Source: Clostridia bacterium (GTDB lineage: Bacteria; Bacillota; Clostridia; TANB77; CAG-465). Taken from it: a stretch of DNA of 64,000 nucleotides. Positions 6,641 through 55,093 of this stretch are shown here, piece by piece. The notes under the pieces were generated by a model. The model was not told where the DNA came from and ran no database searches. It saw only the letters and a program-made list of their open reading frames with translations. The position numbers and the translations under genes are program-made. The stretch spans positions 99,069 to 163,068 of the forward strand of contig JAOAHC010000045.1 of NCBI GenBank assembly GCA_026415435.1, given 5' to 3'. Positions within the stretch are counted from its first letter, which is position 1. Every line of letters starts with the position of its first letter.

Positions 6641-6688
6641 AGAGGCTAAAAGCCTCTAAATGGTCGGAGTGACGGAAACACTAAAAGT
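6641..6688. repeat. Candidate attL of element A: hairpin AGAGGCT-AAA-AGCCTCT followed by a degenerate copy (TGGTCGGAGTGAC) of the tRNA-Pro 3' end
   Basis: 13 nt identical to 55018-55030. The same hairpin-plus-core arrangement recurs at 42911-42961. Confidence 0.45.
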
Positions 6689-20665: not shown

Positions 20666-20998
20666 ATGGAAGAACATTATTTAAAAATATTAGTAAAAGA
20701 TCCTGGTAAGAATCCTGAAGTGAAAAAAATACGAAAGCAATTAAAATCAATGCAAGACATAGTAGGAGGTTATATAGAAATAGTACCATATAAAGAGGCT
20801 ATAATTGTATGTAATGAAGAGGGGAAATTAAACAATTTAGAGCCAAATGTAAATCTGGACAAAGATTACATTGCAGGTTCTTTTTTTATTGTTGGAGATG
20901 ATGAAAAAAACGGAGACTTTAAAAGTTTAACAGATGAGCAAATAGAGAGATTCAAAAAAGAGTTTTCGATTAATTTAGAAGATGAAATGGAGATGTGA
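20666..20998 (+). CDS. Hypothetical protein (110 aa) upstream of the coupling-protein gene
   Basis: GGAGGTG RBS. Its stop overlaps the next gene's start. Confidence 0.55.
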   Translation: MEEHYLKILVKDPGKNPEVKKIRKQLKSMQDIVGGYIEIVPYKEAIIVCNEEGKLNNLEPNVNLDKDYIAGSFFIVGDDEKNGDFKSLTDEQIERFKKEFSINLEDEMEM

Positions 20999-20999
20999 T

Positions 21000-22844
21000 A
21001 TGAGAAATAAAGTATTGATTATTTTACCACTTATTATAGTATCAATACCAATAAGTATATTTTTTAGTTTTGTGATAGATAATTATTTAACTAAAAAAGC
21101 TTTTAGTATAGAGTCAATATCATTAAATAAAATACTTATAAATATAGGAAATAACATTAATTTAATTAAGCTGTTTTTTATGATACAACTTCTTATAATA
21201 GTGTTTATATTATTATTTACTATTTTAAAAAAAGATAATGAATTTAAAAGTGAGAATGTAAGAATAACAAATAATATATCAACTCCAAAAAAAGTAGGAC
21301 AAGGTCAGCATGGTACTTCTAGATGGCTAACAAGTAAAGAATTTGAGAACACCTTTAGTAAAAATATATTAGATTTATATAAAGATATAAGTAGTAATAT
21401 ATTTAATAGTGGGGGATTAGTTGTCGGTTATGAAAAAAAGAAAGATAAAGAGTATATATACTATATAAATGAAAATACTCATTCAATAACAATAGGAGCT
21501 ACCAGAAGTGGTAAAACAAGGACAATAGTATTGCAGACAATAGGAAATTTGGGATTTGCAGGTGAATCTATGATTATATCAGATCCAAAAGGTGAGATAT
21601 TTGAATTTACATCTGAGTTTTTAGAAAGTATAGGATATGAAATAGTAGTAATAGATTTTAAAGATCCACTTAAAAGTAATAAATATAATTTTTTACAACC
21701 AGTTATTGATGCAGTAAATAACAATGATTACCGAAAGGCAGAAGAATATGCATGGGATATAACAACAAGTTTAGTTGGAAGTGAAGACTCTAAAATGGAA
21801 AAGATTTGGAGAGATGGTGAAATGTCAATTATAGCTGGTAGTATAATGACAGTTGTATATGAAAATAAAGATAGACCTGAAGTTCAAAACTTAACTAATG
21901 TATATAGTTTTATATCTGAAATGTGCTTAAGCGATTATGGAGATATGCCAATAAACAGATATATAGAAGATTTAGATGATAATCATCCAGCCAAGAAAAT
22001 ATTTAATATAGCAAGAATTGCTCCTGAAAAAACAAGGGGCAGTTTTTTTACATCTGCTTTGACTACATTAAAGCTTTTTACAAGCGAATCAATTAACAAT
22101 ATGACTTGTAGAAGTGATTTTAATATAAAAGATACAGGAAAAATAAAAAGAGCGATATATATAATTTTACCTGATGAAAGAATCACGTATTATAGTTTAG
22201 CGAGTTTATTTGTAAATCAACAATATGTAAGTCTAGTTGAAGTTGCTGATATGAGAGGGGGTGAGCTAGAAAATAGAGTCAATTTCATGCTTGACGAATT
22301 TGGTAACTTTACAACTATACCAGGTTTTTCAAATATGCTCACAGTAGGAGGTGGTAGGAAAATACGATTTAATATATTTTTACAGTCATTTTCACAGCTT
22401 GAGAGTAAGTATTCAAAAGAGATAGCAAGTAATATATTAGATAACTGTCAAACTTGGATTTACTTAAAGACAGCAAATATAGATACTGCTAATAAAATAA
22501 TGAGAAAGTTAGGTAATTACACAACATCAAGTTATTCAAAATCTAATTCTTATGGGAAAAATGATAATGGGTCTAGTAGTAAATCAATGAATCTAATTAG
22601 TAGAGCATTACTTACAGAAGATGAAATTTTAAGAATAGAAAGACCTTATGTCCTAATAATAAATGCTGGAAATTATCCTGCAATAAAGATGATACCTGAT
22701 TTATCAAAGTGGCATTTTAATAAATTATTTGGCTTAGGTGATGTTGATTTTAATAGGAAAGTGAGGGAAGAAAGAAAAAATAAAAGAAGAATAAATGAAA
22801 GTGAAAAGATACAATTATGGGGAATATGGAAGGAATATAAATAG
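21000..22844 (+). CDS. Type IV coupling protein (VirD4/TraG-family ATPase)
   Basis: Two N-terminal TM helices, Walker A GATRSGKT and Walker B MLDEFGNF. Confidence 0.8.
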   Translation: MRNKVLIILPLIIVSIPISIFFSFVIDNYLTKKAFSIESISLNKILINIGNNINLIKLFFMIQLLIIVFILLFTILKKDNEFKSENVRITNNISTPKKVGQGQHGTSRWLTSKEFENTFSKNILDLYKDISSNIFNSGGLVVGYEKKKDKEYIYYINENTHSITIGATRSGKTRTIVLQTIGNLGFAGESMIISDPKGEIFEFTSEFLESIGYEIVVIDFKDPLKSNKYNFLQPVIDAVNNNDYRKAEEYAWDITTSLVGSEDSKMEKIWRDGEMSIIAGSIMTVVYENKDRPEVQNLTNVYSFISEMCLSDYGDMPINRYIEDLDDNHPAKKIFNIARIAPEKTRGSFFTSALTTLKLFTSESINNMTCRSDFNIKDTGKIKRAIYIILPDERITYYSLASLFVNQQYVSLVEVADMRGGELENRVNFMLDEFGNFTTIPGFSNMLTVGGGRKIRFNIFLQSFSQLESKYSKEIASNILDNCQTWIYLKTANIDTANKIMRKLGNYTTSSYSKSNSYGKNDNGSSSKSMNLISRALLTEDEILRIERPYVLIINAGNYPAIKMIPDLSKWHFNKLFGLGDVDFNRKVREERKNKRRINESEKIQLWGIWKEYK

Positions 22845-25865: not shown

Positions 25866-26480
25866 ATGAAATTTAGTGAATTTTTTAAACAAGAAAAAGA
25901 AAAATCTTGTAATGATGAAATAAATATAAAAGATATTAGAAATAATTTTTTATATACTAAAGACAATAAAATTATGATGTATATTAAGATCCAACCACTT
26001 AATATACATCTTTTATCTGAAAAAGAACAGGAGCAAATAATAAAAACACTTGCAGGAGAGTTATCAAGTGAAAATAGAGAAATGAAGTTTTTTAGTATAT
26101 CACGACCTGTTGATGTAGGTGATTTAATAGAAGATTTAAGAAAAATACAAAATGATAGCGTGGATCAAGTACAAAAAACATTATTAAATAAACATATTAA
26201 TGAAACAGTTAAACTTACATTTACAGGAGATGCGGTAGAGAGACAAAACTTTTTAATAATATGGCAAGATATAAGTGAATATGCAGAAAAAGATTTATTA
26301 AAAAGAGCTATGGATTTATTAAATAAATTTTCTAGTTGTAATATAAAAAGTGAAATATTAGAAGAACAATATATTATTCAGTTATGTAGTGGATTTACTA
26401 ATATGAATTTTGCATTTAAAGAAGATAGTGAATATAACGATTTTATGCCAAGTATAAGAAGGGAGGCAGATAATTATTGA
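25866..26480 (+). CDS. VirB4-family conjugation ATPase, N-terminal domain as a separate ORF
   Basis: GGAGGGG RBS. It ends at a TGA that overlaps the next ORF, which is in the -1 frame. Confidence 0.6.
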   Translation: MKFSEFFKQEKEKSCNDEINIKDIRNNFLYTKDNKIMMYIKIQPLNIHLLSEKEQEQIIKTLAGELSSENREMKFFSISRPVDVGDLIEDLRKIQNDSVDQVQKTLLNKHINETVKLTFTGDAVERQNFLIIWQDISEYAEKDLLKRAMDLLNKFSSCNIKSEILEEQYIIQLCSGFTNMNFAFKEDSEYNDFMPSIRREADNY

Positions 26481-28306
26481 AAATAAAAGAATTTGAAGGA
26501 GTACAGATAAATAATAGTCTACTTAATATTATTACTCCTATTTCAGGAATTGAATATAAACAAAATAAAATGAGAATAGGTGATAACTTTGCTAAAATAT
26601 ATACAATTATTAAATATCCTAAGAATGTTAAAATTGGATGGTTAAGTAAAATATCAAATATACCTAACACTATATCTACACAAATATTCGAGCCTACAGA
26701 TAATACTTTACTTATTGAAAATATATCAAAAGGTATAAGACAAAGTGAAATCATATATGAAACTTCAAAAGATGCCTTAGTTAGAAAAAGAGCTTTAAGA
26801 GAAATAGAAGATGCTCAAGAAATATTAGATAAAGTAGAAGTAAAAGGTGAAACAGTGGGCTATATGACAATAGCTATAATGGTACTTGCAGAAGATGAAG
26901 AAACTTTAAATAGAAGATGTAAGAGAGTTGAAAGTATAATATGTAGTATGCAACTTAAAATGAGAAGTTTAGCTAACTTGTTAAAAGAGTCATATCAAAC
27001 AATAGCACCATTCCATACAATTGATAAAACAATAAAACAAATAGCAAGAAGAAATATAATGATGTCTGACTTTATTGGTGGATTTCCATTTGGTGGTGGT
27101 GGACTTAATGATGGTAATGGATTCGTATTTGGTAAAGACACAACTGGAGGAATAGTAGTATTAGATACATGGAGGAGAGGATTAGATAGAACAAATAGTA
27201 ATTTTGTAGTAATGGGTACAAGTGGTGTTGGAAAATCCACTGCAACTAAACATTTAATACTAAATGAATATATGAGAAATACAAAAATAATAATAATAGA
27301 TCCTGAAAGAGAATATAGAACTCTATGTAATAAACTAGGTGGCGATTGGATAAATGTAGTAGGTAAAAATGGTGCTATGATAAATCCACTACAAATAAAA
27401 CCAGTACCTTTAGATGACGATGATGAAGATATTATAGGATATAAAGATGAGGGCAAAGGGCTTGGAGCAATGGCTTTACATATGCAAAATATAAGACCAT
27501 TTTTTAAGTTGCTCTTTCCTGAACTTACATATAATCAATCTACAATAATAAATGAGGCTCTAGAAAGCTTATATAACAAATTTAAAATATATTGGGATAC
27601 TGATATAACAAAACTTAAAAACAAGGAATTTCCTATAATTAAAGACTTATACGAGCTACTTAAAGATAGAGTATCAAAGTTGGAAAAAGAAAATAGTAAT
27701 ATATCTGATTATAAAATAGTATTATCTTTGTTAAGGGAAATAAGTATTGGTGCCGATAGTGAAATATTTAATGGACATACAAGTGTAAAAATTAATAGTA
27801 AGTGTATAGTACTTGATACATTCAGTTTGCAAAATAGTGATGAAAGAATAAAAAAAGCACAGTACTATAATATACTTACTTATTGTTGGGATATTATGAG
27901 CAAGAATAAAGATGAAAAAGTTTTACTTGTTTGTGATGAAGCATATTTAATGATTGATACACAAGTACCACAAAGTTTGGTATTTCTAAGGAATATAGCA
28001 AAAAGATGTAGAAAATATAATGGTGGGATTGTTATAATATCACATTCAGTTGTAGACTTTTTAGATCCTAGTGTAAAAATGTATGGACAGGCAATATTAG
28101 ATATGGCCTGCTATAAAATACTAATGGGATCAGATGGTAAAAACTTAGAAGAAATGAAGGTATTATATAAACTAACTGAAGCAGAAACAGATTTAATATA
28201 TTCAAGGCAGATGGGTGTAGCATTATTCATGGCTGGTACAAGCAGATTAAGTATTAAGTTTGATATATATAACTATGAATTTAATTACTTTTCAAAGAGT
28301 GTATAA
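26477..28306 (+). CDS. VirB4-family conjugation ATPase, C-terminal ATPase part
   Basis: Walker A GTSGVGKST and Walker B LLVCDEAY. TTG start 10 nt after GGGAGG. Confidence 0.75.
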   Translation: MKIKEFEGVQINNSLLNIITPISGIEYKQNKMRIGDNFAKIYTIIKYPKNVKIGWLSKISNIPNTISTQIFEPTDNTLLIENISKGIRQSEIIYETSKDALVRKRALREIEDAQEILDKVEVKGETVGYMTIAIMVLAEDEETLNRRCKRVESIICSMQLKMRSLANLLKESYQTIAPFHTIDKTIKQIARRNIMMSDFIGGFPFGGGGLNDGNGFVFGKDTTGGIVVLDTWRRGLDRTNSNFVVMGTSGVGKSTATKHLILNEYMRNTKIIIIDPEREYRTLCNKLGGDWINVVGKNGAMINPLQIKPVPLDDDDEDIIGYKDEGKGLGAMALHMQNIRPFFKLLFPELTYNQSTIINEALESLYNKFKIYWDTDITKLKNKEFPIIKDLYELLKDRVSKLEKENSNISDYKIVLSLLREISIGADSEIFNGHTSVKINSKCIVLDTFSLQNSDERIKKAQYYNILTYCWDIMSKNKDEKVLLVCDEAYLMIDTQVPQSLVFLRNIAKRCRKYNGGIVIISHSVVDFLDPSVKMYGQAILDMACYKILMGSDGKNLEEMKVLYKLTEAETDLIYSRQMGVALFMAGTSRLSIKFDIYNYEFNYFSKSV

Positions 28307-40964: not shown

Positions 40965-42710
40965 ATGTTTGAACAATTTAATTTGAAAAATGTTATACTT
41001 ACAAAATATCTATTTTTTACTGGTAAAGGTGGCACAGGTAAAACATCAACAGCATGTAGTATAGCAGTTAATTTAGCTGAAAGTGGTAAAAAAGTTTATT
41101 TAGTAAGTACAGATCCGGCATCTAATTTACAAGATGTTTTTGATACTGAACTTACAAACAAAGCTAAAAATATAGAAGGAATATCTAATTTAGTTGTCTC
41201 TAATCTTGATCCAGTTAATTCTGCTAAAGAATATAGAGATTCAGTTATAGAACCATATATTGGCGTGTTACCAGAATCAGCAATAAAAAATATGGAGGAA
41301 CAATTATCGGGATCATGTACTGTAGAAATAGCAGCGTTCAATGAGTTTTCACACATTATAACTGATAAAGAAATAAGTAAAAACTATGATTATGTTATAT
41401 TTGATACTGCACCAACAGGGCATACTTTAAGAATGTTAGCTCTTCCATCTGCTTGGTCTAATTTTATTGATACAAATAAGTTTGGTGCATCTTGCTTAGG
41501 GCAATTATCAGGACTAGGAGATCAAAAAGAAATCTATCACGAAGCGGTAAACACACTTAAAGATAAAGAAAAAACAACACTTATACTTATAACTAGACCT
41601 GAAGAGACCCCTTTAAAAGAAGCTTCAAGATCATCAATGGAATTGAAAAATATTGGGATGAATAATCAAATACTAATAATAAATGGTATTATTACCGAAC
41701 ATGAAGATAGTGTATCTAGTTCAATATTTGATAAGCAATATAAATCAATACAAAATATGCCTGATGAATTATCAGACATAACTAAATATATGATACCATT
41801 AAGAGGATATAATATAATTGGAATCAATAATATAAGAGATTTAATAAATAAAGATAAATTTGATGAAATAAATGAAGAACTACATAGAGCAGATATAAAT
41901 TCCTTAAAAGATGTTATTGATGATATAGATCTAAATGAGAAGAAAGTTGTTTTTACTATGGGAAAAGGTGGAGTAGGAAAAACTACTATTGCATCTGCAG
42001 TAGCATTAGAACTAAGCGGTAGGGGTAAAAAAGTAGTACTTGCAACTACTGATCCAGCAGATCATCTGAAGTATGTTATATCTGAAAATGAAAATATAGA
42101 GATTATAAAAATAGATGAAAAAAAAGAACTTGAGGAATATAAACAAGAGGTTATTAGTAAAGCAATTGAAAATAATATAACTAACGATGATCTTGAATAT
42201 ATAAAAGAGGATTTAAGATCACCTTGCACGCAAGAAATAGCAGTTTTTAAAGCTTTTGCAAAGATAGTAGATAAAGCAGAAGATAAAGTAGTAATAATTG
42301 ATACAGCACCGACAGGGCATACATTATTATTACTCGATACTACTCAAAGTTATAATAAAGAAATAGCGAGAAGCCAGGGTGATGTACCGGAAGAAGTAAT
42401 TAAATTGTTACCTAGATTAAGAAATGAAAAAGAGACTGAGGTAATAATTGTTACATTACCAGAGGCAACACCAGTTTTAGAATCTAAAAGACTAATGGAA
42501 GATCTAAAGAGAGCAAACATATACACAAAGTGGTGGGTAATAAATTCAAGCATATATTTTAGTAATACAACAAATAAAACACTAAAGAGTAGGGCTATGA
42601 ATGAAATAAAATGGATTAATAAAGTAGATGAAATTACAAATAATAAATTTGCAGTAATAAAATGGATTGGAAATGATTTAAGGGGAAATGAGTTAAAAGC
42701 AATACTATAA
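40965..42710 (+). CDS. arsA: Arsenite-stimulated ATPase ArsA (duplicated P-loop halves)
   Basis: Two GKGGVGKT P-loops and two DTAPTGHTL signal-transduction motifs. Confidence 0.9.
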   Translation: MFEQFNLKNVILTKYLFFTGKGGTGKTSTACSIAVNLAESGKKVYLVSTDPASNLQDVFDTELTNKAKNIEGISNLVVSNLDPVNSAKEYRDSVIEPYIGVLPESAIKNMEEQLSGSCTVEIAAFNEFSHIITDKEISKNYDYVIFDTAPTGHTLRMLALPSAWSNFIDTNKFGASCLGQLSGLGDQKEIYHEAVNTLKDKEKTTLILITRPEETPLKEASRSSMELKNIGMNNQILIINGIITEHEDSVSSSIFDKQYKSIQNMPDELSDITKYMIPLRGYNIIGINNIRDLINKDKFDEINEELHRADINSLKDVIDDIDLNEKKVVFTMGKGGVGKTTIASAVALELSGRGKKVVLATTDPADHLKYVISENENIEIIKIDEKKELEEYKQEVISKAIENNITNDDLEYIKEDLRSPCTQEIAVFKAFAKIVDKAEDKVVIIDTAPTGHTLLLLDTTQSYNKEIARSQGDVPEEVIKLLPRLRNEKETEVIIVTLPEATPVLESKRLMEDLKRANIYTKWWVINSSIYFSNTTNKTLKSRAMNEIKWINKVDEITNNKFAVIKWIGNDLRGNELKAIL

Positions 42711-42801: not shown

Positions 42802-42961
42802 ATGGGACGCTGTAAGTGGGTGCTGTTGGGACGCCATAGATATAAAAAATGATAGGGTTTGACAAAGTTTGAAAAACGTGAACTGCTTGAAAACACTAAA
42901 AACAAAAAATAAGAGAGGTTATAAAAACCTCTCAAATTGGTCGGAGTGACAGGACTTGAAC
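42802..42961. repeat. Composite att region: arm-type GGGACGC repeats (42802-42835), a hairpin (42911-42934) and a 24-nt copy of the tRNA-Pro 3' end (42938-42961). Interpreted as attR of element A fused to attL of element B
   Basis: 42938-42961 is identical to 55018-55041 (TGGTCGGAGTGACAGGACTTGAAC). Confidence 0.7.
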
Positions 42962-43063: not shown

Positions 43064-43099
43064 AAGTGTCGTAGATTCCGACACTTTTTCGACACTTTA
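43064..43099. repeat. Three copies of CGACACTTT (one inverted, two direct), arm-type sites of element B
   Basis: The same CCGACACTTTTT(G/C)GACACTTT is found at 54930-54950, just inside the other end. Confidence 0.55.
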
Positions 43100-43320
43100 G
43101 GGGGAGTACTTTACATATCTTAAACATTATAAGAAATGTAATAGCCATATAGCACTAAGAGTAAATTGCCAAAGTTGAATTATAATAAATATTTAATAAA
43201 TATAACTTTTGTCGAATAATGTCACAAAAGTGTTTTATAAGATGATAATATTGCAAAAAACAGGAAAAAAATGTATAATATATTTAATAATTAAAGATAT
43301 ATAGCAAAGGATGTAGTTTT

Positions 43321-46300
43321 ATGGAAGTAAAAAAAGATATTGAAGAAGTTAAGAAAAATGTTAATATGTATTTCAAGGATGAAGCAGTAAAAAATTATAA
43401 AGAGGATAAATTATATAATGGACATATTTCAAAAAATATAATTAATACTATTGAAGCAAATAGTCCACCTTATAATATAGCACTAATAGGTAAATGGGGT
43501 ACAGGCAAAACAAGTATACTAAATTTTGTACAAGCAGACTTAGAGGAAAAGGGATATATTTTTACTACGATAAATGCTTGGAAATATGAAAAAGATTCTA
43601 TTAGAAAAGCTTTTATATTGGAAATATTAAAAAAATTAGATTATAAAGAAGAAAAAATAAAAGATATTATAAAAGAATTTTTGGAAAATTTAAGTAAGAA
43701 ATATTACATAGATGAAAAAAATATTGAATTAGAGAGTTCAAGTAAATTTAAGAAGTTCCAAAAGATTATAAATTTCTTTAAACATATTGGCATTTATATA
43801 TTAAATTTATTTAGGGGAATATTCACCTTTTTTCCAATGGTAGTCATTTATATTTCAACGTTAGCTGTAATTGATATTATATTAAATATATATGGCGTAA
43901 ATATAGAAGATTATAATGGCATTCGATTAGAAGCAATTTTAAGCATGGTGTTATTTGTAATTGGTATTATATATGATGGCACTAAAATAGTAGCAAAATC
44001 CAAAAGAATAATAAATGTGAATGAGAGTATAAAAGATGCAACGTATTATGAATCTGAACTAGAAAATTATTTAAAAAAGTATAAAGCTGATATGAAAAAT
44101 GCTGGGAAAAAATTTAGTGGTGTAGTATGTATTATCGATGATATGGATAGATTAAATGCTTCCAAGATTGTTGAATCATTAAGCGCTGTTAAGGGATTTG
44201 TTGGGCTAGAAGATATAATATTTATAGTACCATATGATGTAAATATTGTCAAAGAAGCTATAAAGAAGAATCAAAATAATATTAATAATTACAATGCTTA
44301 TGAATTGGTTGAAAGTGAATTAGTATTAAATAAACTTTTCCAATTTAAATTTTATTTGCCAGAGTTGATAAAGCAGGATATGTATGAATATATTATTAAG
44401 TTATTAGATTCAAATGAGTGTGAAGTAGGTTTTATTAATAATTTGTTTGATAAATATTATTTTACAAATAGTATTCTACCTATTCTAATACACGAGCTCA
44501 TAGATACTCCTAGAGAGGCAAAAAATATTATAAATGCTTTTGTAAGTAAATATATTATTGCTAAAAATAGGCAAGAAGAGGGAATATTAGATTTAGAGCA
44601 AAATGATATAAGAATGTTAGCAAAGCTTACTGTTTTAGAAAATGATTATAAAGAATTATATGATTATATTTTAGATTATCCTGATATTCTAGATATAGTA
44701 CTTGAAATGTCAAAAGAAAAAGATGATATTGATGGTGATATTTTAAACGTCAAAAATTATAAATTAGAAGATTATAGTAAAGAAGAAATAATAATCTTCA
44801 CAAAACTTTTAAAATGCTATCAAAGAGTAAAATTTAAGTCATTAATTAATTTTCTATCATCATACAGTACTTTAAATGCAGATAATGTTGAAAGATTGAT
44901 ATACCTAAAAAATAGTGAAAAGGAAAATAAACATGGTGGTAAGATTGTAAAAGAATTTATTAACTATTTGAAAAGTTTAAATATTGAAAGTGCTAAAACT
45001 ACAATTTCTAAAATTGATAATGCATCAGAATTAATATATTTAGAACTTAATAAGTTAGATAGCAATCCAGATAAAAGAGATAACTTAGCAATATCAACAA
45101 TAAAGTTATTTGATAATATAAATAATTATAAAGAAGAAATATATAATATGATAGATAGTTATTTAAGTTATATAGATATTGAAGATAAAAAATTAAATGA
45201 AATTAAAATAGATGATTTATTAAAGATAATGAATATTAATCCAAAATTAAGTAATATAAAAGAGATTTTTATTAATAAGCTAAAAAATTACGATTATTCA
45301 GTAGAATATACAGGAACACGTGACAATTCTGATTATTACAATACTGGTAGAGTTAGTGATGATATTAATAGTATTATAAAAAATATTGATTTATTAGATG
45401 AAAGTTTATCAGGAATTGTAAAAGAATTTATAAAAAAAATATTTACTAATAAATTAGATAAGGAAAATGGAATAACTCAATATAATTTAAATTTTCTTGT
45501 AAAAAATATTAAAATTAAACTAAATGACAACTTAATAAATAAAGTACTAGGAAAAGAGTATATAGAAAATGTAATTAAAAATATTAGTAAAAACAACTTT
45601 GATAATATTAATCATATAAAAGAATACTATATTTCAACTGATAAAATAGATGATTTTATAGAGTTGATTGTAGCTTATTGTATTGATAAAAAAATAATAG
45701 AAAAAATATTAGATATTCTTACAGAAATAATAGATAAAGCAAGTTTTGAAAAAAAGAAAGATATATATAATTCATTTAATGATATAGATTTTATTGATTT
45801 AAAAGAAAAAGAATTTAAGTACGAAAAACTTGATACTTTACTTGCAAAAATAGAATTAAATAGAATAAATGATAATAGTAGTATAGATGATTTTATGAAT
45901 ACTTTATTTAAAATTTATACTTTACCCAAGACATTATCAAAGTTAGTAGACATCAATCTATTAAATGAAATGCCAAGTACATTAAATATTATTGAAAATG
46001 ATTTAATAAATAATCAAGACTACAATTTTATCTTAAATGGATTGTTTAGTAAATTAAATTTGGAGAATAGGAAAGATTTAATTGAAAAAATTAAAAGTAA
46101 GTATGATGAGATTTCTGAATACAAAGATTTATTATCATTAAATAAATTTATTGATGTATTTAAAGATAAGAAGTATGGAAATACATATTTAAACTCTATT
46201 TCTTCTAAAATTATTAATAAACTAAGGGATATGGAAAGTAGTGTTGAAACAGAAGAAGTTATATATTCTTTATTAGATAAATTGCATGAGAATATATATG

Positions 46301-47136
46301 TCTGCGATATGAGTGTAAGGATAGAGTATTTAGAATTTATACTAGAAGATATATTTGATTATAATAAAGAAAAAGCATTAGAATATATAAATGAAATTAA
46401 TTTTGAAATAGATAGTGAGAAGTTAAAAGATACATTAAAAAAAGTTTTAAATAAAAATTCAAATATTTCAAATATTAAAAAATTTATTTTTAGAAATAGT
46501 AATGCAATTAAATCAAATAATGAATATAAAGAAGATTTTATAGAATCATTTATATTGGAGCAGAAAGGCAATGAAAATTTAGATGATGAATTATTTAAAT
46601 TTATAACTGAATTTGATAATTTAAATAATAAAGATATATTAAATTTATATACTAATTTCTGGAATATAAAGTATCTTAAATATTTGGATTATCTAATATT
46701 AAGGAGTTCCAATAAAATTGAATTAATAAAAAGCATTATAGACAGTAATTTAAATTTAGATTTACTAATAGATATAATTAAACTTAAAAGTTATGAATGG
46801 AATAAAGATTGCTTAAATGAACTGTTGAAAATAGGAGAATATAAGTATTTAAAATCAATACTTTATATTATTTCAAAACTTGATAATATAAAAGGTATAG
46901 GAAATTTATTATTAAATGAAAAATTGAGAGAATATGCATTAAAATTAGAAGAATCTGAATTAGTAGGATTTTCTGAGATATTATCTTTATTAAGATACAA
47001 AAAAATTATAAATAAAACTACTTCTAAAGATATATTTTCTAAGATTACAGTTCACTTAGAAAAAACAAAAAATATTGAAATATCAAACGAAGTACTAAAT
47101 AAAGTATCATTTTTAAATCCTAAAATAAATATATAG
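43321..47136 (+). CDS. Giant KAP-family P-loop NTPase (1271 aa) with a long Lys/Asn-rich helical C-terminal extension
   Basis: Walker A IALIGKWGTGKTS. Two TM helices are inserted in the NTPase domain, which is the KAP hallmark. Walker B region VCIIDDMDR. Confidence 0.8.
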   Translation: MEVKKDIEEVKKNVNMYFKDEAVKNYKEDKLYNGHISKNIINTIEANSPPYNIALIGKWGTGKTSILNFVQADLEEKGYIFTTINAWKYEKDSIRKAFILEILKKLDYKEEKIKDIIKEFLENLSKKYYIDEKNIELESSSKFKKFQKIINFFKHIGIYILNLFRGIFTFFPMVVIYISTLAVIDIILNIYGVNIEDYNGIRLEAILSMVLFVIGIIYDGTKIVAKSKRIINVNESIKDATYYESELENYLKKYKADMKNAGKKFSGVVCIIDDMDRLNASKIVESLSAVKGFVGLEDIIFIVPYDVNIVKEAIKKNQNNINNYNAYELVESELVLNKLFQFKFYLPELIKQDMYEYIIKLLDSNECEVGFINNLFDKYYFTNSILPILIHELIDTPREAKNIINAFVSKYIIAKNRQEEGILDLEQNDIRMLAKLTVLENDYKELYDYILDYPDILDIVLEMSKEKDDIDGDILNVKNYKLEDYSKEEIIIFTKLLKCYQRVKFKSLINFLSSYSTLNADNVERLIYLKNSEKENKHGGKIVKEFINYLKSLNIESAKTTISKIDNASELIYLELNKLDSNPDKRDNLAISTIKLFDNINNYKEEIYNMIDSYLSYIDIEDKKLNEIKIDDLLKIMNINPKLSNIKEIFINKLKNYDYSVEYTGTRDNSDYYNTGRVSDDINSIIKNIDLLDESLSGIVKEFIKKIFTNKLDKENGITQYNLNFLVKNIKIKLNDNLINKVLGKEYIENVIKNISKNNFDNINHIKEYYISTDKIDDFIELIVAYCIDKKIIEKILDILTEIIDKASFEKKKDIYNSFNDIDFIDLKEKEFKYEKLDTLLAKIELNRINDNSSIDDFMNTLFKIYTLPKTLSKLVDINLLNEMPSTLNIIENDLINNQDYNFILNGLFSKLNLENRKDLIEKIKSKYDEISEYKDLLSLNKFIDVFKDKKYGNTYLNSISSKIINKLRDMESSVETEEVIYSLLDKLHENIYVCDMSVRIEYLEFILEDIFDYNKEKALEYINEINFEIDSEKLKDTLKKVLNKNSNISNIKKFIFRNSNAIKSNNEYKEDFIESFILEQKGNENLDDELFKFITEFDNLNNKDILNLYTNFWNIKYLKYLDYLILRSSNKIELIKSIIDSNLNLDLLIDIIKLKSYEWNKDCLNELLKIGEYKYLKSILYIISKLDNIKGIGNLLLNEKLREYALKLEESELVGFSEILSLLRYKKIINKTTSKDIFSKITVHLEKTKNIEISNEVLNKVSFLNPKINI

Positions 47137-47150
47137 TATTATATAACTAC

Positions 47151-47183
47151 AAAATCGCTGTATAACTACACAGCGATTTTTAT
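47151..47183. terminator. Terminator shared by the KAP gene and the convergent small gene
   Basis: Stem AAAATCGCTG / CAGCGATTTT with a 10-nt loop. Confidence 0.6.
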
Positions 47184-47202
47184 ATGTTTATAAAAAAATC
47201 AA

Positions 47203-47364
47203 TTATTCTCTATTTGAAATGGCGAATTTTATCATTTCAATAACAACTTTATTAAATGATATTTTCTCTTTTTTTGCTATTTCTTCTATTATTTTTACAT
47301 CCGTTTCAGGGATTCTCAATGTTTTACTTATTTGAGTTACCTCTTTAGGTATCTTAAACTTCAT
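47203..47364 (-). CDS. Small ribbon-helix-helix (CopG/Arc-like) DNA-binding protein, 53 aa
   Basis: GGAGGA RBS. KTLRIPETDVKIIEEIAKKEKISFNKVVIEMIKF fits a beta-strand plus two helices. Not in the ORF track. Confidence 0.4.
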   Translation of the reverse strand: MKFKIPKEVTQISKTLRIPETDVKIIEEIAKKEKISFNKVVIEMIKFAISNRE

Positions 47365-47523
47365 ATAAATCCTCCAATCTATATTACATTTATAATATAG
47401 TTATATTTTATACTGAAAACAGCATATAAATCAGCACCTATAAATACAATTACAAAACAATTGCAAATATGGTTGCAAAAATACAAAATAAATGGTATAA
47501 TAATGCAAAAAGGAGATGTATTT

Positions 47524-48591
47524 ATGAATAAGATAAAAGAATTAATAAAAAAATATAAGATTTTATGCATTGTAATTACAATAGTGATAGTTTTAGTTAT
47601 ATCTACAATACTAGTGTTATATTTCAAGAATCCTAAAAATAGCTTTATATATAATCTAAACAATAATAACTTTACTAAGGCAAATGAAATATATGAAAAA
47701 AGTATTAAGTACGACAAGAAAGTACAAGTAGAAACTGAAATTGAAGTTGAAAAGATTATTGCTAGTATAACTGAAAACTTTAATAATGCTAAAAAAGGAT
47801 ATAATGAATCTATTGAATTACTTAATAGTGTTGAAAAAACTGGAATGCTAAAAGATAAGGTAATAGAAGCAAAAAAAATAGTTGAGGATTTAAATAAATC
47901 TAAAACGGCATATTTGAAAGCTATTGAATATAGTAAATCTGGAGATTATTATAATACTTTAGTTGAGTTTAATTCAGTAATTGAGAAAGATATAAATTAT
48001 AATATTGCTAAAGAGAAAAGTAGTGAAATTTTGAGCAAATATAGGGAAGAATTATTTAAAACAGTTGATGAAAATGTTGCAAAAGGAGATTATGATAAAT
48101 CAATAGAATTATTAACCCAATTAAGTAAGATTAGTCCAGAAGATAAAGAGATACAAACAAAAATTGAAGTATATAAAGATAAGAAAATTGTTAGTCTAAA
48201 AGATAAACAAGAAGTAAATGTAGTATCTGCAGATTTTCATACTCAATGGTATTCTGATACTGTTTCTGGGATAAAAGTTATAATAAAAAATAACACTAAT
48301 AAAGTAATAAAAAACTACACACTTGGAATATTAGCATATGATAAGGATAATTATCCTTTACAAATATCATATAGTAATACTCTTTTTAGGGGTAAAGGAG
48401 AATCAGTAAATATACAACCAGGACAGACTGGAGGAGAGGATACATATTTTGATATATACTATAACGAAGAAAAGATGAAGACTGCTATTGCATGTGTTGA
48501 AAGTGTTGAATACTATGACGGAACAGAATGGACTAATCCATATTATCAACTATGGTTAGAAAAATATAATGATAAGAGATACTCTAATTAA
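47524..48591 (+). CDS. Membrane-anchored extracytoplasmic protein of unknown function
   Basis: AAAGGAG RBS. N-terminal TM helix followed by a ~320-aa domain. Confidence 0.55.
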   Translation: MNKIKELIKKYKILCIVITIVIVLVISTILVLYFKNPKNSFIYNLNNNNFTKANEIYEKSIKYDKKVQVETEIEVEKIIASITENFNNAKKGYNESIELLNSVEKTGMLKDKVIEAKKIVEDLNKSKTAYLKAIEYSKSGDYYNTLVEFNSVIEKDINYNIAKEKSSEILSKYREELFKTVDENVAKGDYDKSIELLTQLSKISPEDKEIQTKIEVYKDKKIVSLKDKQEVNVVSADFHTQWYSDTVSGIKVIIKNNTNKVIKNYTLGILAYDKDNYPLQISYSNTLFRGKGESVNIQPGQTGGEDTYFDIYYNEEKMKTAIACVESVEYYDGTEWTNPYYQLWLEKYNDKRYSN

Positions 48592-49253: not shown

Positions 49254-50339
49254 TTACTCTATAGGTCTAAATGTGTGGTCTCTACGACCATTTTTTCCGT
49301 TTTCAGGTGGTGGAGTATATTCTATGTCATCTTGATTTTTTAGTAATTCTTTTATATTCCTTAGATGCTTAGATAACGTAACGGGAGTATAAGAGAGATT
49401 ATTGTTATTATGTCTTTGGCAAACATCTAATAATTGCTGAGCACTACCAAACCACGCATATTCTGATTCTACTAGATGTTTTATTACTTTTACAACAGGG
49501 TCTTTTAGATAGTCTATTACTTTTTGCTGTTCTTGAAGTTCTTCTTTGTTTCCTATAAGTTCCCACTTACAAGTAGTATTATTAAATGAAATTATATAAT
49601 CATTTTCTACAATATCTCTACCAGTTATTGACCATTTTGTTTCTATATCCTCTCTTTTATTTTTCGTAAATACATATGCTGTATCAACCGCACCAAGTAT
49701 AGCAGTGGAACCAGAAATCATATTGAAAGAATCGCTATCATCCTTTGATTTCCTTAGATGGTGTATTAATAATATACATATATTATATTTATCAGCTAAA
49801 TTCTTTATTGCACTCATATCCCTATAGTCTCCAGCATACACATTTTGACTACCATATGCATTTTCTCTTACTTTTTGAAGAGTGTCTATAACTATTAGTT
49901 TTGTGTCTGGATGTTCTATAATATATAAATCTAAATAATCAATTAGCCCACTAGATAATCCAGGTATTTCTGTAGTAAAATTGAAATTACTTGGTGCTGT
50001 ATCATTGTTTAGTAGTTTTTCTACACGCTCTTTCAATCTTTTTTCACCATCCTCTAATGCTAAGTACAAGCATCCTGATTTTCTTGTTTCAAAACCAAGA
50101 AAGGGTAATCCTTTACTAACACTTAAGCATAAATCAAGAGCAAACCAACTCTTTTTTGATTTGGGTGGAGCAGCAAGTATTGATAAGCCTTGAGGTAGTA
50201 CCTTATCAACAATATATGTTGTAGGGTCAAATTCTTTGTTTTGCAGTTCTTGTGCAGATATTGTTCTTATTTTTTTCTTTTTTTTACTGTCTTCTTCTAA
50301 ATTGATAACAGTAGTTTCTTTTAAAATGTCTTTATCCAT
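49254..50339 (-). CDS. RecA-fold AAA_25 NTPase (RepA / primase-associated, replication-initiator-like)
   Basis: Walker A AAPPKSKKS and Walker B LIVIDTL. Strong AGGAGGAA RBS. Confidence 0.65.
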   Translation of the reverse strand: MDKDILKETTVINLEEDSKKKKKIRTISAQELQNKEFDPTTYIVDKVLPQGLSILAAPPKSKKSWFALDLCLSVSKGLPFLGFETRKSGCLYLALEDGEKRLKERVEKLLNNDTAPSNFNFTTEIPGLSSGLIDYLDLYIIEHPDTKLIVIDTLQKVRENAYGSQNVYAGDYRDMSAIKNLADKYNICILLIHHLRKSKDDSDSFNMISGSTAILGAVDTAYVFTKNKREDIETKWSITGRDIVENDYIISFNNTTCKWELIGNKEELQEQQKVIDYLKDPVVKVIKHLVESEYAWFGSAQQLLDVCQRHNNNNLSYTPVTLSKHLRNIKELLKNQDDIEYTPPPENGKNGRRDHTFRPIE

Positions 50340-50449: not shown

Positions 50450-50629
50450 TTATTCATTGTTTTGAGCAATATTTTTTTGTTCTAATATATACTCATTTAC
50501 ATCATCAATATTAAAAGTAATTTTTGAGCCAATTCTAAAGAATTTTATTTTCTTTTCTCTCACTAATTTCCTTATAGCAGATTCTGAACACCCTAAATAT
50601 TCAGCTAATTTTTTGACATTAAAAAACAT
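50450..50629 (-). CDS. Excisionase/AlpA-family HTH protein
   Basis: MFFNVKKLAEYLGCSESAIRKLVREKKIKFFRIGSKITF. AAGGAGG RBS. The ORF track starts at 50647. Confidence 0.65.
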   Translation of the reverse strand: MFFNVKKLAEYLGCSESAIRKLVREKKIKFFRIGSKITFNIDDVNEYILEQKNIAQNNE

Positions 50630-50861
50630 AAGTGAACCTCCTTTCATATAAAATTTGTAAATAAACGTTTATCTTACACTATTTATTATAACATTAGAAA
50701 TACTCAAAAATCAATACGATTTTACACGTTCGCATTGTTGAACATTTAGTAAATAAAAAGGAAATAGTGTCTTGTTTTTAATCATTATTAAATATGTGTA
50801 AAATAATATTGACAACAAACCTTTGGTATGCTATAATAATATATATTAGGGGGAGAACTTT

Positions 50862-51767
50862 ATGAAGAAATATATATTTCCAACTGAGGTTACGGGCTCA
50901 GAAAAAAAACAACAAAGTTATTTTACTAAAACGTTAAGAGAGACCAGAGAAAAGAGGGCTAGTGAATATAAAGATTCTAAATATAATCCTTACTCACAAA
51001 AAAGCATTGCTGAGAAAATAGGAGTTTCAAGAACAACTTATAGTAACTATGAAACAGGAGACAAATTACCTAAAATAGAGACATTTTATAAATTATGTGA
51101 AGTATTAGGTGTATCTTGCGATTATCTTTTAGGATACTCAAAAAGTCCAATAAGAGAAAATAGAGATGTAGCCAACTCTACAGGATTAAGTGATGAAAAT
51201 ATTGAAAAATTTAAGACTTATAAAGATAAAAAAATAACTTTATTTTTAATTAATAACATTCTTAATAATAGTAAGCTTATTAATCTTTTAAGAGAATATT
51301 TAGTTGAAAAACCTATGAAAGATATATTTAATGAAAATGAAGAACTAAATATATTCTTAAATAATTATAATTCTAACTTTGATAGTCATCCTATAAAAAC
51401 ATATATGGAAGAAAATAAGTATGAATATTATAAATTGATTGAGTATATGCCATTATTACAAGAAGAGTTTAAAAATAAACTTATTGATATTACAAATAAA
51501 AAAGATTATAGTCTATTCTTTGAGTTCTTTAGTTATTATGAGAAAATAAAAAATAGAGATAATGAGATTTATAATAAACTAGAAGATAATGAAATCAAAG
51601 TACATTCTGAGGAAGAAATAAAAGAAATGAATGAAAAGATGGATAAAATGGTAAGAGAGCATGAAGCTATTGAATTAGAAAAATATCTTGAAACTGATGA
51701 ATATAACATGTTTAAAAAAATCAATGAAAGTTATCAGGAATATTTAAAATCTAATTCAAAAGAATAA
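50862..51767 (+). CDS. XRE-family HTH regulator with a C-terminal extension (element repressor candidate)
   Basis: HTH QKSIAEKIGVSRTTYSNYETG. Confidence 0.75.
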   Translation: MKKYIFPTEVTGSEKKQQSYFTKTLRETREKRASEYKDSKYNPYSQKSIAEKIGVSRTTYSNYETGDKLPKIETFYKLCEVLGVSCDYLLGYSKSPIRENRDVANSTGLSDENIEKFKTYKDKKITLFLINNILNNSKLINLLREYLVEKPMKDIFNENEELNIFLNNYNSNFDSHPIKTYMEENKYEYYKLIEYMPLLQEEFKNKLIDITNKKDYSLFFEFFSYYEKIKNRDNEIYNKLEDNEIKVHSEEEIKEMNEKMDKMVREHEAIELEKYLETDEYNMFKKINESYQEYLKSNSKE

Positions 51768-51850
51768 TAATATTTTAGTTGTGGAGGTGATGTTAATGTG
51801 ATTATTTAAGTAAAAATAGATTGGAACTAGAAAAAAAGGAGGAATTTGAA

Positions 51851-52984
51851 TTGTCAGTTAGAGAAATAGCAAAAAATAAGTATAGAATAGAAATACCAAT
51901 AGCATATATAGGTTCGAAAAGAAAAAGGCATGTTGAGACACTTGATAATACAACATTAAAGCAAGCAAAGCTTAGAGAAGCTGAGATAAAATTAGAATTA
52001 ACTAATAACAATTATATAAAGAAGATTAATATTACTTTTGAACAACTATTAGATGAATGGCTTAAAATGCAAGAAAGTAAACTTGCAATAAAAACATATA
52101 AGAACTATGTTAATTATTCTAAAAGAATTAAAGATAGTATAGGATATGTTAAATTAAAAGATATAAACCCTAGAATATTAGAAGGTTTTTATAATGATTT
52201 AAGAACAAATACGACTTATGCTGATAAGACAATAAAACATTACTATACATTAATTAATACAGTATTAAGTACAGCAGTTAAATGGGATTATATAAAAACT
52301 AATCCAAATACTAAAGTAGATAAAATTATTGTAAAAAAGAAGCAAGGAAGATTTTATACACCTGAACAAGTAGCTAAATTAGTAAATGCTCTAGAAAGTG
52401 AAAGCTTAAAGTATAAAGTATTAATTATACTAGCAATAGATACAGGATGTAGAAGAGGAGAACTTACAGGATTAGAATGGAATGATATAGACTTTGAAAA
52501 AGGGATTATATATATAAATAAAACTACTCAATATGTAGCAGGAATAGGAACCTTTGAAAAGGGAACAAAAGGAAATAGAGGATACACTAGTGATAGAAAA
52601 ATTCATATATCTAAAACAACTAAAGAATTATTATTAGAATTTAAGGAAGAACAAAGCAAACTTAAAGATAAACTAGGAGAATTGTGGCAAGGTAGCAAAA
52701 GAATCTTTACAACTGATTGGGGAGCAGATATGCATCCTAATACACCATCGGCTATACTTACTAAAATACTAGAGAGAAATAAACTAGATTATATAAATTT
52801 TCATGGATTAAGACATACTAGTATTTCATTACAAATTGAGTTAGGGATACAACCACAGGTTATATCTAAGAGAGCAGGACATAGCAATTTAAATACAACT
52901 CATAGTATATACTCTCATTTCTTTGAAAGCAGTTTTGAAGAAGTACCAGAAAAGATAGATGCTTTTTTACATGCATCAACATAA
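51851..52984 (+). CDS. int: Tyrosine integrase (phage/island type)
   Basis: HGLRHTSISL...AGHSNLNTTHSIYSH catalytic residues. AGGAGG RBS 8 nt before TTG 51851. The ORF track starts at 51821. Confidence 0.85.
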   Translation: MSVREIAKNKYRIEIPIAYIGSKRKRHVETLDNTTLKQAKLREAEIKLELTNNNYIKKINITFEQLLDEWLKMQESKLAIKTYKNYVNYSKRIKDSIGYVKLKDINPRILEGFYNDLRTNTTYADKTIKHYYTLINTVLSTAVKWDYIKTNPNTKVDKIIVKKKQGRFYTPEQVAKLVNALESESLKYKVLIILAIDTGCRRGELTGLEWNDIDFEKGIIYINKTTQYVAGIGTFEKGTKGNRGYTSDRKIHISKTTKELLLEFKEEQSKLKDKLGELWQGSKRIFTTDWGADMHPNTPSAILTKILERNKLDYINFHGLRHTSISLQIELGIQPQVISKRAGHSNLNTTHSIYSHFFESSFEEVPEKIDAFLHAST

Positions 52985-53138: not shown

Positions 53139-53912
53139 ATGAAACAACCATATTTAGTATTAATTGAAAGTGAAGAAGTTAAAAGGAATAAAACTAAATT
53201 AAATATACCAGGAATTTATAATTTTTTGCCACATGTATATGATGCATTAATGAAATTACCTTTTTATTGCGGAAAATTAGCTGAAGATGATGATATTAAT
53301 ATGATAAAAATCCAGGACGTATTTCAGTTTTATATATATGACTTTCCATTCAAAATTAGAAATATATATTCATTAATGGAAATAGGAAGTTATGCAGATG
53401 CTGTTATTTTATACCGCTCACTAATTGAAAGTTTTATTTTTTATAAGTACTATATTTTAAGGAAAGATGGTCATGGATTAAGCAAATATATTCTAAGGGA
53501 ATCTAAAAAAACTTTAAAAGATATTTTTGAATGTGTTATCCCAGGCTATTATAATGATATATATAGTGAACTGTGTAAATTTACACATGGAAATCCATTA
53601 ATACAAGCTATATTTAGGGGTAACGTATCAAAAGATAAACCTTTAAAGTCAAATATTAATAATATTAATATTGATTGGTTTTCATACATTCATAATCAAT
53701 TAATTCCTTTAATTATTGGAGTAACTGAAATGTATAAAATTGTATTTCCTAATAATATTATAAAAAACGATGAAATATTAATTAAAGATTTAGAGTATGT
53801 TTATAAGTTTATTAATGATGATATAGATTATAGAAAAGAATTTTTTATAACCCAGTTGCCGATGATAAATTATTATAATAAAATAATTAGAATGAACTTA
53901 GATACAAATTAA
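53139..53912 (+). CDS. Hypothetical protein (257 aa)
   Basis: AGGAGG RBS. Confidence 0.55.
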   Translation: MKQPYLVLIESEEVKRNKTKLNIPGIYNFLPHVYDALMKLPFYCGKLAEDDDINMIKIQDVFQFYIYDFPFKIRNIYSLMEIGSYADAVILYRSLIESFIFYKYYILRKDGHGLSKYILRESKKTLKDIFECVIPGYYNDIYSELCKFTHGNPLIQAIFRGNVSKDKPLKSNINNINIDWFSYIHNQLIPLIIGVTEMYKIVFPNNIIKNDEILIKDLEYVYKFINDDIDYRKEFFITQLPMINYYNKIIRMNLDTN

Positions 53913-53989
53913 TATTAATAAAATACATAAACTTTAGAACTATTGTTCTTTTGGATTTTACATGTTATAATACTAAAAGGGGGTATAAT

Positions 53990-54739
53990 ATGGAACAGAA
54001 AGAATTATATAAAATAGTCAGTAAATATTTTTCTAATGAAATTAATTATATGAATGTATATGGGGATATAAAACAAGAAGAAATTGTTAAAATGTTTAAA
54101 TCACTATATTCTTATGAAAGACCTGATTTCTTTTCTATATATGATAATAAATTAATAGGAATAGAACATTTTGAATTTGATAGTTATAAGAAAAATACTA
54201 AAGGTAGTGATTATAGAAAAAAAGAAGCATTAATAAATAAAGAAGTAGATAAAGCTAATAAACAATTAAAAGTTAATAATGATATGATTATGCTACACAA
54301 TGAAATAGTTAATACTTCATCAGCTGAAAGTTATATTAATAATTTATATACTGTATTTAACAGTCACTATGAAAAAATAGCTGAGTATGAAAATAATTTT
54401 AAAACAGATGTTAATTTTAAAAATATGGAAATAGAAATTTGGTTTTTTATTGAAGATGTAACTCCTTTAGGAAATTTCTATATTAATGATAATGATAAAA
54501 TTTGTTTTTTTGATATTATTCATATTAAACAATTTATAGAATTATTAGCTAAATCTCCAAATGTTAAAGGTATAATAGGTACAAGTTTTAATGGGAAGGA
54601 AGATAAAATTAGCATTATAAAAAATAATAGTGAAACATTAAAAGTGTTAAAGTCAGAATGTGTTGACATTGAAACAAAAAAATTGCAGGCTTTTAATCCA
54701 CAATTATTAGATTATACACTAATTATACCTAAAAAATAA
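53990..54739 (+). CDS. Hypothetical protein (249 aa)
   Basis: AAGGGGG RBS before ATG 53990. Confidence 0.5.
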   Translation: MEQKELYKIVSKYFSNEINYMNVYGDIKQEEIVKMFKSLYSYERPDFFSIYDNKLIGIEHFEFDSYKKNTKGSDYRKKEALINKEVDKANKQLKVNNDMIMLHNEIVNTSSAESYINNLYTVFNSHYEKIAEYENNFKTDVNFKNMEIEIWFFIEDVTPLGNFYINDNDKICFFDIIHIKQFIELLAKSPNVKGIIGTSFNGKEDKISIIKNNSETLKVLKSECVDIETKKLQAFNPQLLDYTLIIPKK

Positions 54740-54929: not shown

Positions 54930-54950
54930 CCGACACTTTTTGGACACTTT
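54930..54950. repeat. Arm-type repeat CCGACACTTTTTGGACACTTT of element B (right end)
   Basis: Matches 43078-43098. Confidence 0.55.
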
Positions 54951-55017: not shown

Positions 55018-55093
55018 TGGTCGGAGTGACAGGACTTGAACCTGCAACCCCATGGTCCCAAACCACGTGCGCTACCAATTGCGCTACACCCCG
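55018..55093 (-). tRNA. tRNA-Pro (anticodon UGG) with encoded CCA
   Basis: The reverse complement folds as a cloverleaf, CGGGGTG...TTTGGGA...GGTTCAAGTCCTGTCACTCCGACCA, very similar to Bacillus tRNA-Pro. Confidence 0.9.

Follow-up and report, generated by a model that had tools for sequence, protein, structure and literature searches.

Architecture of the KAP protein

What does a giant, membrane-associated nucleoside triphosphatase (NTPase) gene do on a small integrative element of a low-GC Clostridia genome, and does it act together with the membrane-anchored protein encoded downstream of it? This question was raised by a stretch of 64,000 nucleotides (hereafter, the window) of contig JAOAHC010000045.1 (positions 99,069 to 163,068) in the metagenome-assembled genome (MAG) GCA_026415435.1. 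We found that the gene in question encodes a membrane-anchored NTPase of the KAP family, a family of P-loop NTPases described by Aravind et al. (2004), and that it is a self-contained single-gene unit without a conserved partner, located on a 12.1-kb island integrated at a tRNA-Pro gene. By analogy with Tmn and with the EF_KAP type of KAP fusion, the gene probably confers single-gene immunity against phages (or other mobile elements). Its main features, with two transmembrane (TM) helices between the Walker motifs, are as follows.

43321..47136, plus strand: KAP gene, membrane-anchored KAP-family NTPase with a solenoid tail (1271 amino acids (aa), ATG start, uninterrupted)
43489..43512, plus strand: Walker A motif GKWGTGKT (aa 57-64)
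43786..43992, plus strand: membrane hairpin of two TM helices, inserted between the Walker motifs (aa ~156-224)
44125..44151, plus strand: Walker B/KAP motif VCIIDDMDR (aa 269-277)
44671..47133, plus strand: C-terminal all-alpha HEAT/ARM-like solenoid, putative sensor arm (aa 451-1271, ~820 aa)

The hidden Markov model (HMM) of Pfam KAP_NTPase (PF07693) matched aa 34-408 with 99.9 bits (E = 2e-28; cut-off, 20) and was covered from position 2 to 287 of 293. When 74-83 homologues were compared, G57, G60, G62, and K63 of Walker A and D274, D276, and R277 of Walker B were invariant. Hydropathy analysis located the TM segments at aa ~156-188 and ~200-224, both between the Walker motifs, and the position of the hairpin was the same in nearly all homologues. 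A KAP signature and a pair of TM helices inserted in the P-loop domain had already been noticed in a preliminary description of this DNA, and Pfam, the Walker motifs, and hydropathy agreed in confirming both: the protein belongs to the KAP family by its HMM score above the threshold, its intact Walker A and B motifs (GxxxxGK[ST] and hhhhDDxDR, respectively), and its inserted TM helices. In an AlphaFold2 model of aa 1-490, the P-loop alpha/beta core had a predicted local distance difference test (pLDDT) score above 90, and the inserted helices (141-191 and 198-226) were placed after the second strand and before the Walker B strand. The charges around the hairpin (KFKKFQK before it, KSKR after it, and an acidic NIEDYNG in the loop) fit a topology that would leave both halves of the NTPase in the cytoplasm. 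A Foldseek search with the NTPase model found RdrA of RADAR (E = 1e-5), and the nearest solved structures were oligomerising AAA+/STAND-type ATPases.

Beyond aa ~450, no domain was found in Pfam, NCBIfam, PHROG, or PADLOC. The tail had been called low-complexity, which it is not: 9.9% of its residues lay in low-entropy windows, a share like that of the N-terminus (10%) and within the range of other proteins of the window (2.5-16%), and its bias toward I, K, L, and N is shared by everything else in this 25% GC window. The AlphaFold2 model of aa 431-1271 was all-alpha, with ~53 short helices and no strands (pLDDT, 78.3; predicted template modelling score (pTM), 0.52). Foldseek matched this model to karyopherin-beta2, transportin-3, CRM1, condensin Ycg1, PP2A-A, and SF3B1, which are HEAT/ARM solenoids, and a sequence-profile search of the PDB gave weak matches only, to designed helical repeats and to the HEAT repeats of EF3. 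These predictions suggest that the tail folds as a HEAT/ARM-like solenoid, for which a role as a sensor is putative. Within the close clade, identity fell from 48% in the NTPase to 26% in the TM insert and 21% in the tail, and phmmer with the tail alone retrieved only the protein itself and one other representative among 1.84 billion. D856 and K1255 in the tail were nearly invariant among homologues.

Relatives of the KAP protein

A search of 5.8 billion proteins yielded 108 protein clusters related to the KAP protein, mostly of 1200-1300 aa, and a scan of one genome per species yielded 169 relatives. Alignments with the closest ~28 clusters covered 80-98% of the query, many of them 97-98%, at 30-35% identity. 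Since homologues cover the full length, the tail is a genuine part of the protein and not the product of merged open reading frames (ORFs), an artefact that had been raised as a concern. The preliminary description also held the protein to be far longer than typical KAP proteins, which does not apply here, as ~1270 aa is the norm for the clade.

ORF reconstruction, layout, and neighbour counts were based on 88 loci encoding KAP relatives. The shared layout consisted of Walker A near residue 50, a TM pair at ~135-215, and the DDxDR motif at ~240-270, in a total of 1200-1360 aa; it was found in Clostridia, Bacilli, Cyanobacteria/Melainabacteria, Armatimonadota, Woesearchaeota, and Methanosarcinaceae. 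This clade is large and poorly annotated, and it is missed by current defence finders, PADLOC giving only partial PifA and QatA matches. A KAP NTPase with a TM hairpin and a long tail was seen at the archaeal loci L045, L054, and L061-L068, where the proteins measured 1304-1351 aa in Woesearchaeota and Methanosarcinaceae, ~1116-1129 aa in haloarchaea, and ~1056-1069 aa in Nitrosopumilaceae; in the last group, two copies occurred in one genome. Relatives of the Bacillus clade (P0047, P0049, P0052, and P0091) matched the PADLOC candidate system PDC-S20 with E values of ~1e-13 to 1e-15, and the window KAP protein gave no PDC-S20 match in PADLOC.

Comparison with known systems and proposed function

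KAP NTPases had been said to have no assigned mechanism. That statement is out of date, as Tmn and the EF_KAP type were characterized in 2025-2026 (10.64898/2026.03.01.708804; PMC13552941). Tmn, a KAP/YobI-family NTPase first reported by Gao et al. (2020) and also treated by Wu et al. (10.1101/2022.08.21.504612), is a single gene with a median product of ~1270 aa in Enterobacteriaceae, in which two TM helices inside the P-loop domain are followed by a variable ARM/HEAT-like solenoid sensing phage proteins; for phage T2, the trigger is RIIB. It forms a decameric membrane hub, whose activation leads to more ATP turnover, Mg2+ export, and plasmolysis (10.64898/2026.03.01.708804). Like Tmn, the window KAP gene is a single gene of ~1270 aa without a conserved operon, located on a mobile element; its product has the same order of Walker A, two TM helices, Walker B, and a variable alpha-helical ARM/HEAT-like solenoid, and the same gradient from a conserved NTPase to a variable tail. 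Unlike Tmn, it scores as KAP (PF07693) rather than YobI, and it comes from a low-GC Clostridia MAG.

Protection by a single gene was likewise reported for fusions of a KAP NTPase to a C-terminal region of unknown function (PLoS Biol 2026, PMC13552941). Three such fusions came from gut Firmicute metagenomes, protection required Walker B and the C-terminal region, and EF_KAP protected equally at high and low multiplicity of infection (MOI), i.e., it was non-abortive (PMC13552941). The window protein resembles this type in having a KAP domain with a TM segment and a C-terminal region without known domains, in its Firmicute and gut origin, and in its location near a recombinase. The EF_KAP tail is 322 aa long, against ~820 aa here; moreover, EF_KAP-type genes adjoin small serine recombinases, whereas the window KAP family adjoins tyrosine integrases. 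Homologues of ~780 aa (e.g., P0044, P0070, and P0098) aligned with aa 11-783 of the KAP protein at 28% identity; their identification as EF_KAP, considered from the Walker B DD at positions 246/247 of P0098, was rejected as unproven.

On these likenesses, single-gene immunity of the Tmn/EF_KAP type is the function that we favour for the window KAP gene, with moderate confidence; we are less confident of an output specifically like that of Tmn. In this model, the AAA+/STAND-like ATPase cores of the protomers would come together to form a ring-shaped membrane hub, from which the fast-evolving solenoid arms would bind a phage protein. Binding would stimulate ATP turnover, and the change would be relayed through the hairpins to disturb ion or membrane homeostasis, as in the Mg2+ export and plasmolysis of Tmn, so that phage replication would stop. 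The window KAP NTPase is most likely a member of an already described kind of system and introduces no new principle. If functional, it would extend the Tmn/KAP-fusion class of membrane-embedded single-gene phage sensors to low-GC Clostridia.

Several observations weigh against this assignment, most of them concerning the link to Tmn, which was compared by means of HMM libraries and its published description. Tmn was defined by a PADLOC HMM match with at least 50% profile coverage and E < 1e-10, and the window KAP protein gave no match at E <= 10 to the Tmn HMM of PADLOC-DB v2.0.0, whose presence in the library was assumed from the published work (10.64898/2026.03.01.708804); only the partial PifA and QatA matches were obtained. 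Neither did it match Pfam YobI-ATPase (PF20693) at E <= 10. The distant relatives P0052 and P0091 scored 42-43 bits on YobI-ATPase (cut-off, 27) and 136 bits on KAP_NTPase. Furthermore, tblastn with the window KAP protein against 72,556 plasmids detected no enterobacterial Tmn; with this protein and P0098 as queries, the KAP genes recovered were rhizobial or haloarchaeal, apart from a few of other non-enterobacterial origin. Because there was neither an HMM match nor a plasmid Tmn, the transfer of the Tmn mechanism rests on architecture and not on orthology, and by these sequence comparisons membership in Tmn itself is not supported. The proximal arm of Tmn (a coiled coil plus an alpha/beta domain) appears to be absent from the modelled tail, in which no strands were predicted over aa 431-1271, and the overall shape of that model is uncertain because its pTM was only 0.52. 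In addition, the class may not have a uniform output, since Tmn causes cell arrest and EF_KAP is reported to be non-abortive. Finally, a scan of viral contigs found one KAP locus only; this near-absence is listed here as well, although it is neutral with respect to defence and excludes a typical phage origin.

A related possibility, which we advance tentatively and would not expect to hold, is that the KAP proteins of ~1200-1360 aa from Clostridia, Bacilli, Cyanobacteria/Melainabacteria, and archaea are a lineage separate from Tmn/YobI, in which the design of a membrane-hairpin ATPase hub with a hypervariable solenoid is either shared with Tmn/YobI or was reached independently. Such a lineage might have a different set of triggers or a different membrane output.

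The best PADLOC match of the window protein was PifA (E = 4.6e-20), the KAP-family NTPase responsible for T7 exclusion by the F plasmid and thus likewise borne on a mobile element. This match and the membrane anchor of the KAP protein could point to a PifA-like abortive infection, in which the protein would sense a phage protein and kill or depolarise the cell by membrane leakage rather than by selective ion export; PifA has indeed been described as causing depolarisation and nucleotide leakage. We consider this unlikely. The match was confined to the NTPase domain, its best stretch (aa 17-129) spanning just profile positions 5-115 of 720; PifA, of ~720 aa, has no TM helices (10.64898/2026.03.01.708804) and no long solenoid, whereas the window protein has a TM hairpin and a solenoid; and the equal protection by EF_KAP at high and low MOI (PMC13552941) argues against an abortive mode.

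Likeness to other defence ATPases was more limited. QatA was matched with E = 3e-16 in PADLOC and with 72.6 bits in NCBIfam (cut-off, 600); however, three conserved genes follow those of the QatA-like proteins (~620 aa), and none of the three was present at the window KAP locus. The fusion of a putatively ring-forming ATPase to helical regions, and with it the logic of an NTPase coupled to a repeat sensor, is shared with RdrA of RADAR and other AAA+/STAND defence ATPases (Avs and BrxC). The likeness to RdrA is restricted to the structure of the ATPase core; RdrA lacks a TM hairpin and acts together with the deaminase RdrB, and the scanned ORFs of the island included no deaminase gene. In Avs proteins, effector domains are located at the N-terminus, whereas no enzymatic effector domain was detectable in the window KAP protein, which leaves the membrane hairpin as its sole candidate for an output element.

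The 12.1-kb island and its sister

The KAP gene had been regarded as island cargo, and exact repeats that bound the element holding it bear this out. The features of the island outside the KAP gene and the genes immediately downstream of it are as follows.

42938..42961, plus strand: attL, left end of the island, 24-bp direct repeat TGGTCGGAGTGACAGGACTTGAAC, an exact copy of the 3' end of tRNA-Pro
43078..43098, plus strand: sub-terminal 21-bp direct repeat CCGACACTTTTTCGACACTTT, with its partner at 54930-54950 (plus strand)
49254..50339, minus strand: AAA_25/DnaB-primase-like replication protein
50450..50647, minus strand: HTH_17 excisionase-like gene
50862..51767, plus strand: HTH_3 (Cro/CI-type) repressor-like gene
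51821..52984, plus strand: tyrosine integrase of the island
53139-53912, plus strand: DUF5677 cargo gene (29.5 bits, just over the cut-off)
53951-54739, plus strand: cargo gene, 262-aa product weakly matching SMODS nucleotidyltransferase (E = 0.002, under the cut-off)
55018..55093, minus strand: tRNA-Pro(tgg), whose 3' 24 nt (55018-55041) are attR, the right end of the island

The 24-bp tRNA-Pro repeat was exact at both ends, with 0 expected from shuffled sequences. The att repeats delimit a 12.1-kb integrative element at tRNA-Pro, with the KAP gene beside attL. The 21-bp repeat, which can be written as CCGACACTTTTT(C/G)GACACTTT, was located ~117 bp inside attL and ~68 bp inside attR (2 matches, 0 expected by chance); its copies are possible arm-type sites for the integrase, the excisionase, or another recombinase. 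The scanned ORFs of the island included no recognisable structural or packaging gene, so that it resembles a satellite or an integrative mobilisable element. The DUF5677 gene and the gene for the 262-aa protein, whose products had no PADLOC or PHROG match, lie between the integrase and attR and may represent another pair of cargo or defence genes. A nucleotide search with the 14-kb region against plasmid and phage collections gave no match.

A sister island was found on contig L095 (352-13514, Logan SRR22315502), with a backbone of ~84% nucleotide identity. Identity to the window island was 76% in the stretch proximal to attL, 85% in a segment with a gene for a 53-aa protein and a DUF5780 gene (94% and 82% for the respective proteins), and 84% in the segment with AAA_25 and the excisionase gene. 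At the KAP position, L095 instead had genes for a 382-aa protein, a 1323-aa P-loop protein, and an FtsK/SspH-like protein, and a second slot, between DUF5780 and AAA_25, held an Mrr-like nuclease, AbiA (PADLOC E = 1e-58), and an acetyltransferase. Since L095 retains the 53-aa and DUF5780 genes and exchanges the KAP slot, these two genes belong to the island backbone or form a module of their own, and the KAP gene is exchangeable cargo. A pair of islands with a near-identical backbone and different cargo is a natural, testable example of a defence hotspot. Should the KAP proteins form a lineage of their own, a reading that we hold to be rather unlikely, the two islands would represent a new family of satellite-like, tRNA-Pro-integrating elements of Clostridia with two exchangeable defence slots. 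The Mrr-like nuclease protein was of the Mrr_cat/NA-iREase1 type. The 1323-aa P-loop protein bore the motif GASGQGKST and had no Pfam or PADLOC match; it could be another, uncharacterised defence NTPase.

Relatives of the KAP gene were also associated with mobile elements. By tblastn, the integrase was found in 14 of the 88 loci and the excisionase in nine. In six contexts annotated with Pfam, the integrase, KAP, HTH_17, Phage_rep_org_N, and IstB/DnaA-like genes followed in this order, sometimes with a relaxase, and type I restriction-modification, Abi_alpha, AAA_21/RloB, or SLFN-helicase genes were nearby; DUF5780 was absent from all six. The location of KAP relatives on such small elements with integrase, excisionase, and replication genes (often relaxase-bearing), beside the integrase or an att site, might suggest that the KAP protein serves the island itself, by excluding competing elements, by interfering with a helper phage, or by organising a membrane complex for transfer or maintenance; for Tmn of F plasmids, which lies in the leading region, an aid to plasmid maintenance has been proposed. 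However, the KAP slot is variable, and the variable slots of L095 hold other cargo including AbiA, which argues against a backbone function. Besides, some KAP homologues had no integrase within the region examined. A service to the island is thus an improbable role, and we retain immunity as the favoured function of the KAP gene.

The genes downstream of the KAP gene

Whether the KAP protein works with the membrane-anchored protein encoded downstream can be judged in part from the segment between and around the two genes, which contains the following features.

43251..43279, plus strand: promoter-like site of the KAP gene, TTGCAA-17-TATAAT (consensus match only)
47151..47180, no strand assigned: bidirectional terminator hairpin between the KAP gene and the convergent gene for a 53-aa protein (perfect 11-bp stem with flanking A and T tracts)
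47203..47364, minus strand: gene for a 53-aa ribbon-helix-helix (RHH)-like protein, island backbone, convergent to the KAP gene (ribosome-binding site (RBS), GGAGGA)
47473-47501: promoter-like site of the DUF5780 gene, TG-extended
47524..48591, plus strand: gene for a signal-anchored protein with TPR-like and DUF5780 regions, island backbone (355 aa; RBS, AGGAG)

The small convergent RHH-like gene noted earlier does exist, with an RHH_1 match that was only sub-threshold (E = 0.04; 14.3 bits, cut-off 20.5). As for the downstream gene, the TM anchor stated in the preliminary description was substantiated: the protein has a single TM anchor at its N-terminus, and a DUF5780 domain (E = 2e-28) forms its C-terminal part. 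The start of the gene was moved from TTG 47461; it is most likely the ATG at 47524, which is preceded by the AGGAG RBS and gives the 355-aa product.

The KAP and DUF5780 genes are adjacent on one island and both products are membrane-associated, and they were described as a cassette of two genes with a role in defence, for which the RHH-like gene might be a regulator. The distribution of the genes makes such a cassette very unlikely. Neither the DUF5780 protein nor the 53-aa protein was detected by tblastn within 8-10 kb of any of the 88 KAP-relative loci. When three genes on either side were clustered for 82 loci, one family recurred widely, the tyrosine integrase (15 of 82), and no conserved KAP partner emerged; yet the same clustering recovered the three conserved genes downstream of the ~620-aa QatA-like proteins (QatBCD of QatABCD), which served as the positive control and indicates that the approach can detect a real operon. 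These QatA-like loci (L074, L075, L080, L081, and L083) belonged to Klebsiella, Flavobacterium, Betaproteobacteria, Chloroflexota, and Methylomonas. In the window, the KAP gene is separated from the DUF5780 gene by the 11-bp-stem terminator, the convergent gene, and a separate promoter-like site. Terminator-like sites were enriched in the region (5 observed, 0.4 expected), and promoter-like sites were not enriched in this AT-rich DNA. Moreover, L095 keeps the 53-aa and DUF5780 genes without a KAP gene. The DUF5780 protein had only eight homologous clusters, the closest of which (82% identity) was the one on L095; other DUF5780 genes were located at the end of a Clostridium beijerinckii prophage and on another integrase-bearing element, neither with a KAP gene, and the scan of viral contigs found no DUF5780 locus. 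The supposed membrane partner can therefore be set aside as a misleading lead, and the KAP gene stands as a single-gene unit.

The 53-aa gene and the divergent DUF5780 gene travel together, at 47203-48591 in the window and at 6989-8378 in L095. A more distant homologue of C. beijerinckii (L098:8001-9215) adjoins genes for a holin, an amidase, serine recombinases, and choline-binding proteins; this genomic context suggests a cell-surface role of the DUF5780 module, possibly in superinfection exclusion.

Integrity and composition of the KAP gene

The KAP gene is preceded by an RBS (AAGGA) 9 nt 5' of its ATG. At the local base composition (46% A and 34% T), ~11% of random codons would be stops, so that 1271 stop-free codons would arise by accident with a chance of ~1e-67. 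The GC content across 45001-47000, the solenoid-coding part, was 18%, compared with ~25% for the window, which fits a foreign origin and/or a relaxed or diversifying evolution of the tail. Although this low GC content across 45-47 kb and the strong divergence of the tail might also be taken as signs of gene decay or loss of function, with sequence drift in the AT-rich tail, this is hardly credible for an ORF that has remained open at such a stop-codon density, keeps all family-invariant residues together with the nearly invariant D856 and K1255, is predicted to fold with confidence (pLDDT 78), and has a length conserved across phyla.

A neighbouring integrative conjugative element

Directly left of the KAP island, a separate integrative conjugative element (ICE) of ~36 kb occupies positions 6660-42937 of the window. 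Its far end is marked by a 14-bp partial copy of the att core (tRNA-Pro) at 6660-6673, and its other end is the attL of the KAP island. The bounding of this ICE by the partial repeat and attL indicates tandem accretion at tRNA-Pro. Its genes include the following.

7590-9434: P-type ATPase
18441-19577: MobL relaxase
20982-22844: T4 coupling protein
26477-28306: VirB4-like ATPase
33268-35974: SpaA/thioester surface proteins
38526-39701: integrase of the ICE
39824-42710: arsR-arsR-arsD-arsA

The ars operon was considered as part of the KAP island and rejected, as it lies left of attL and belongs to the separate ICE. The ICE further carries genes for a Phage_rep_org_N protein, an FtsX permease, and a sigma-70 r4 protein.

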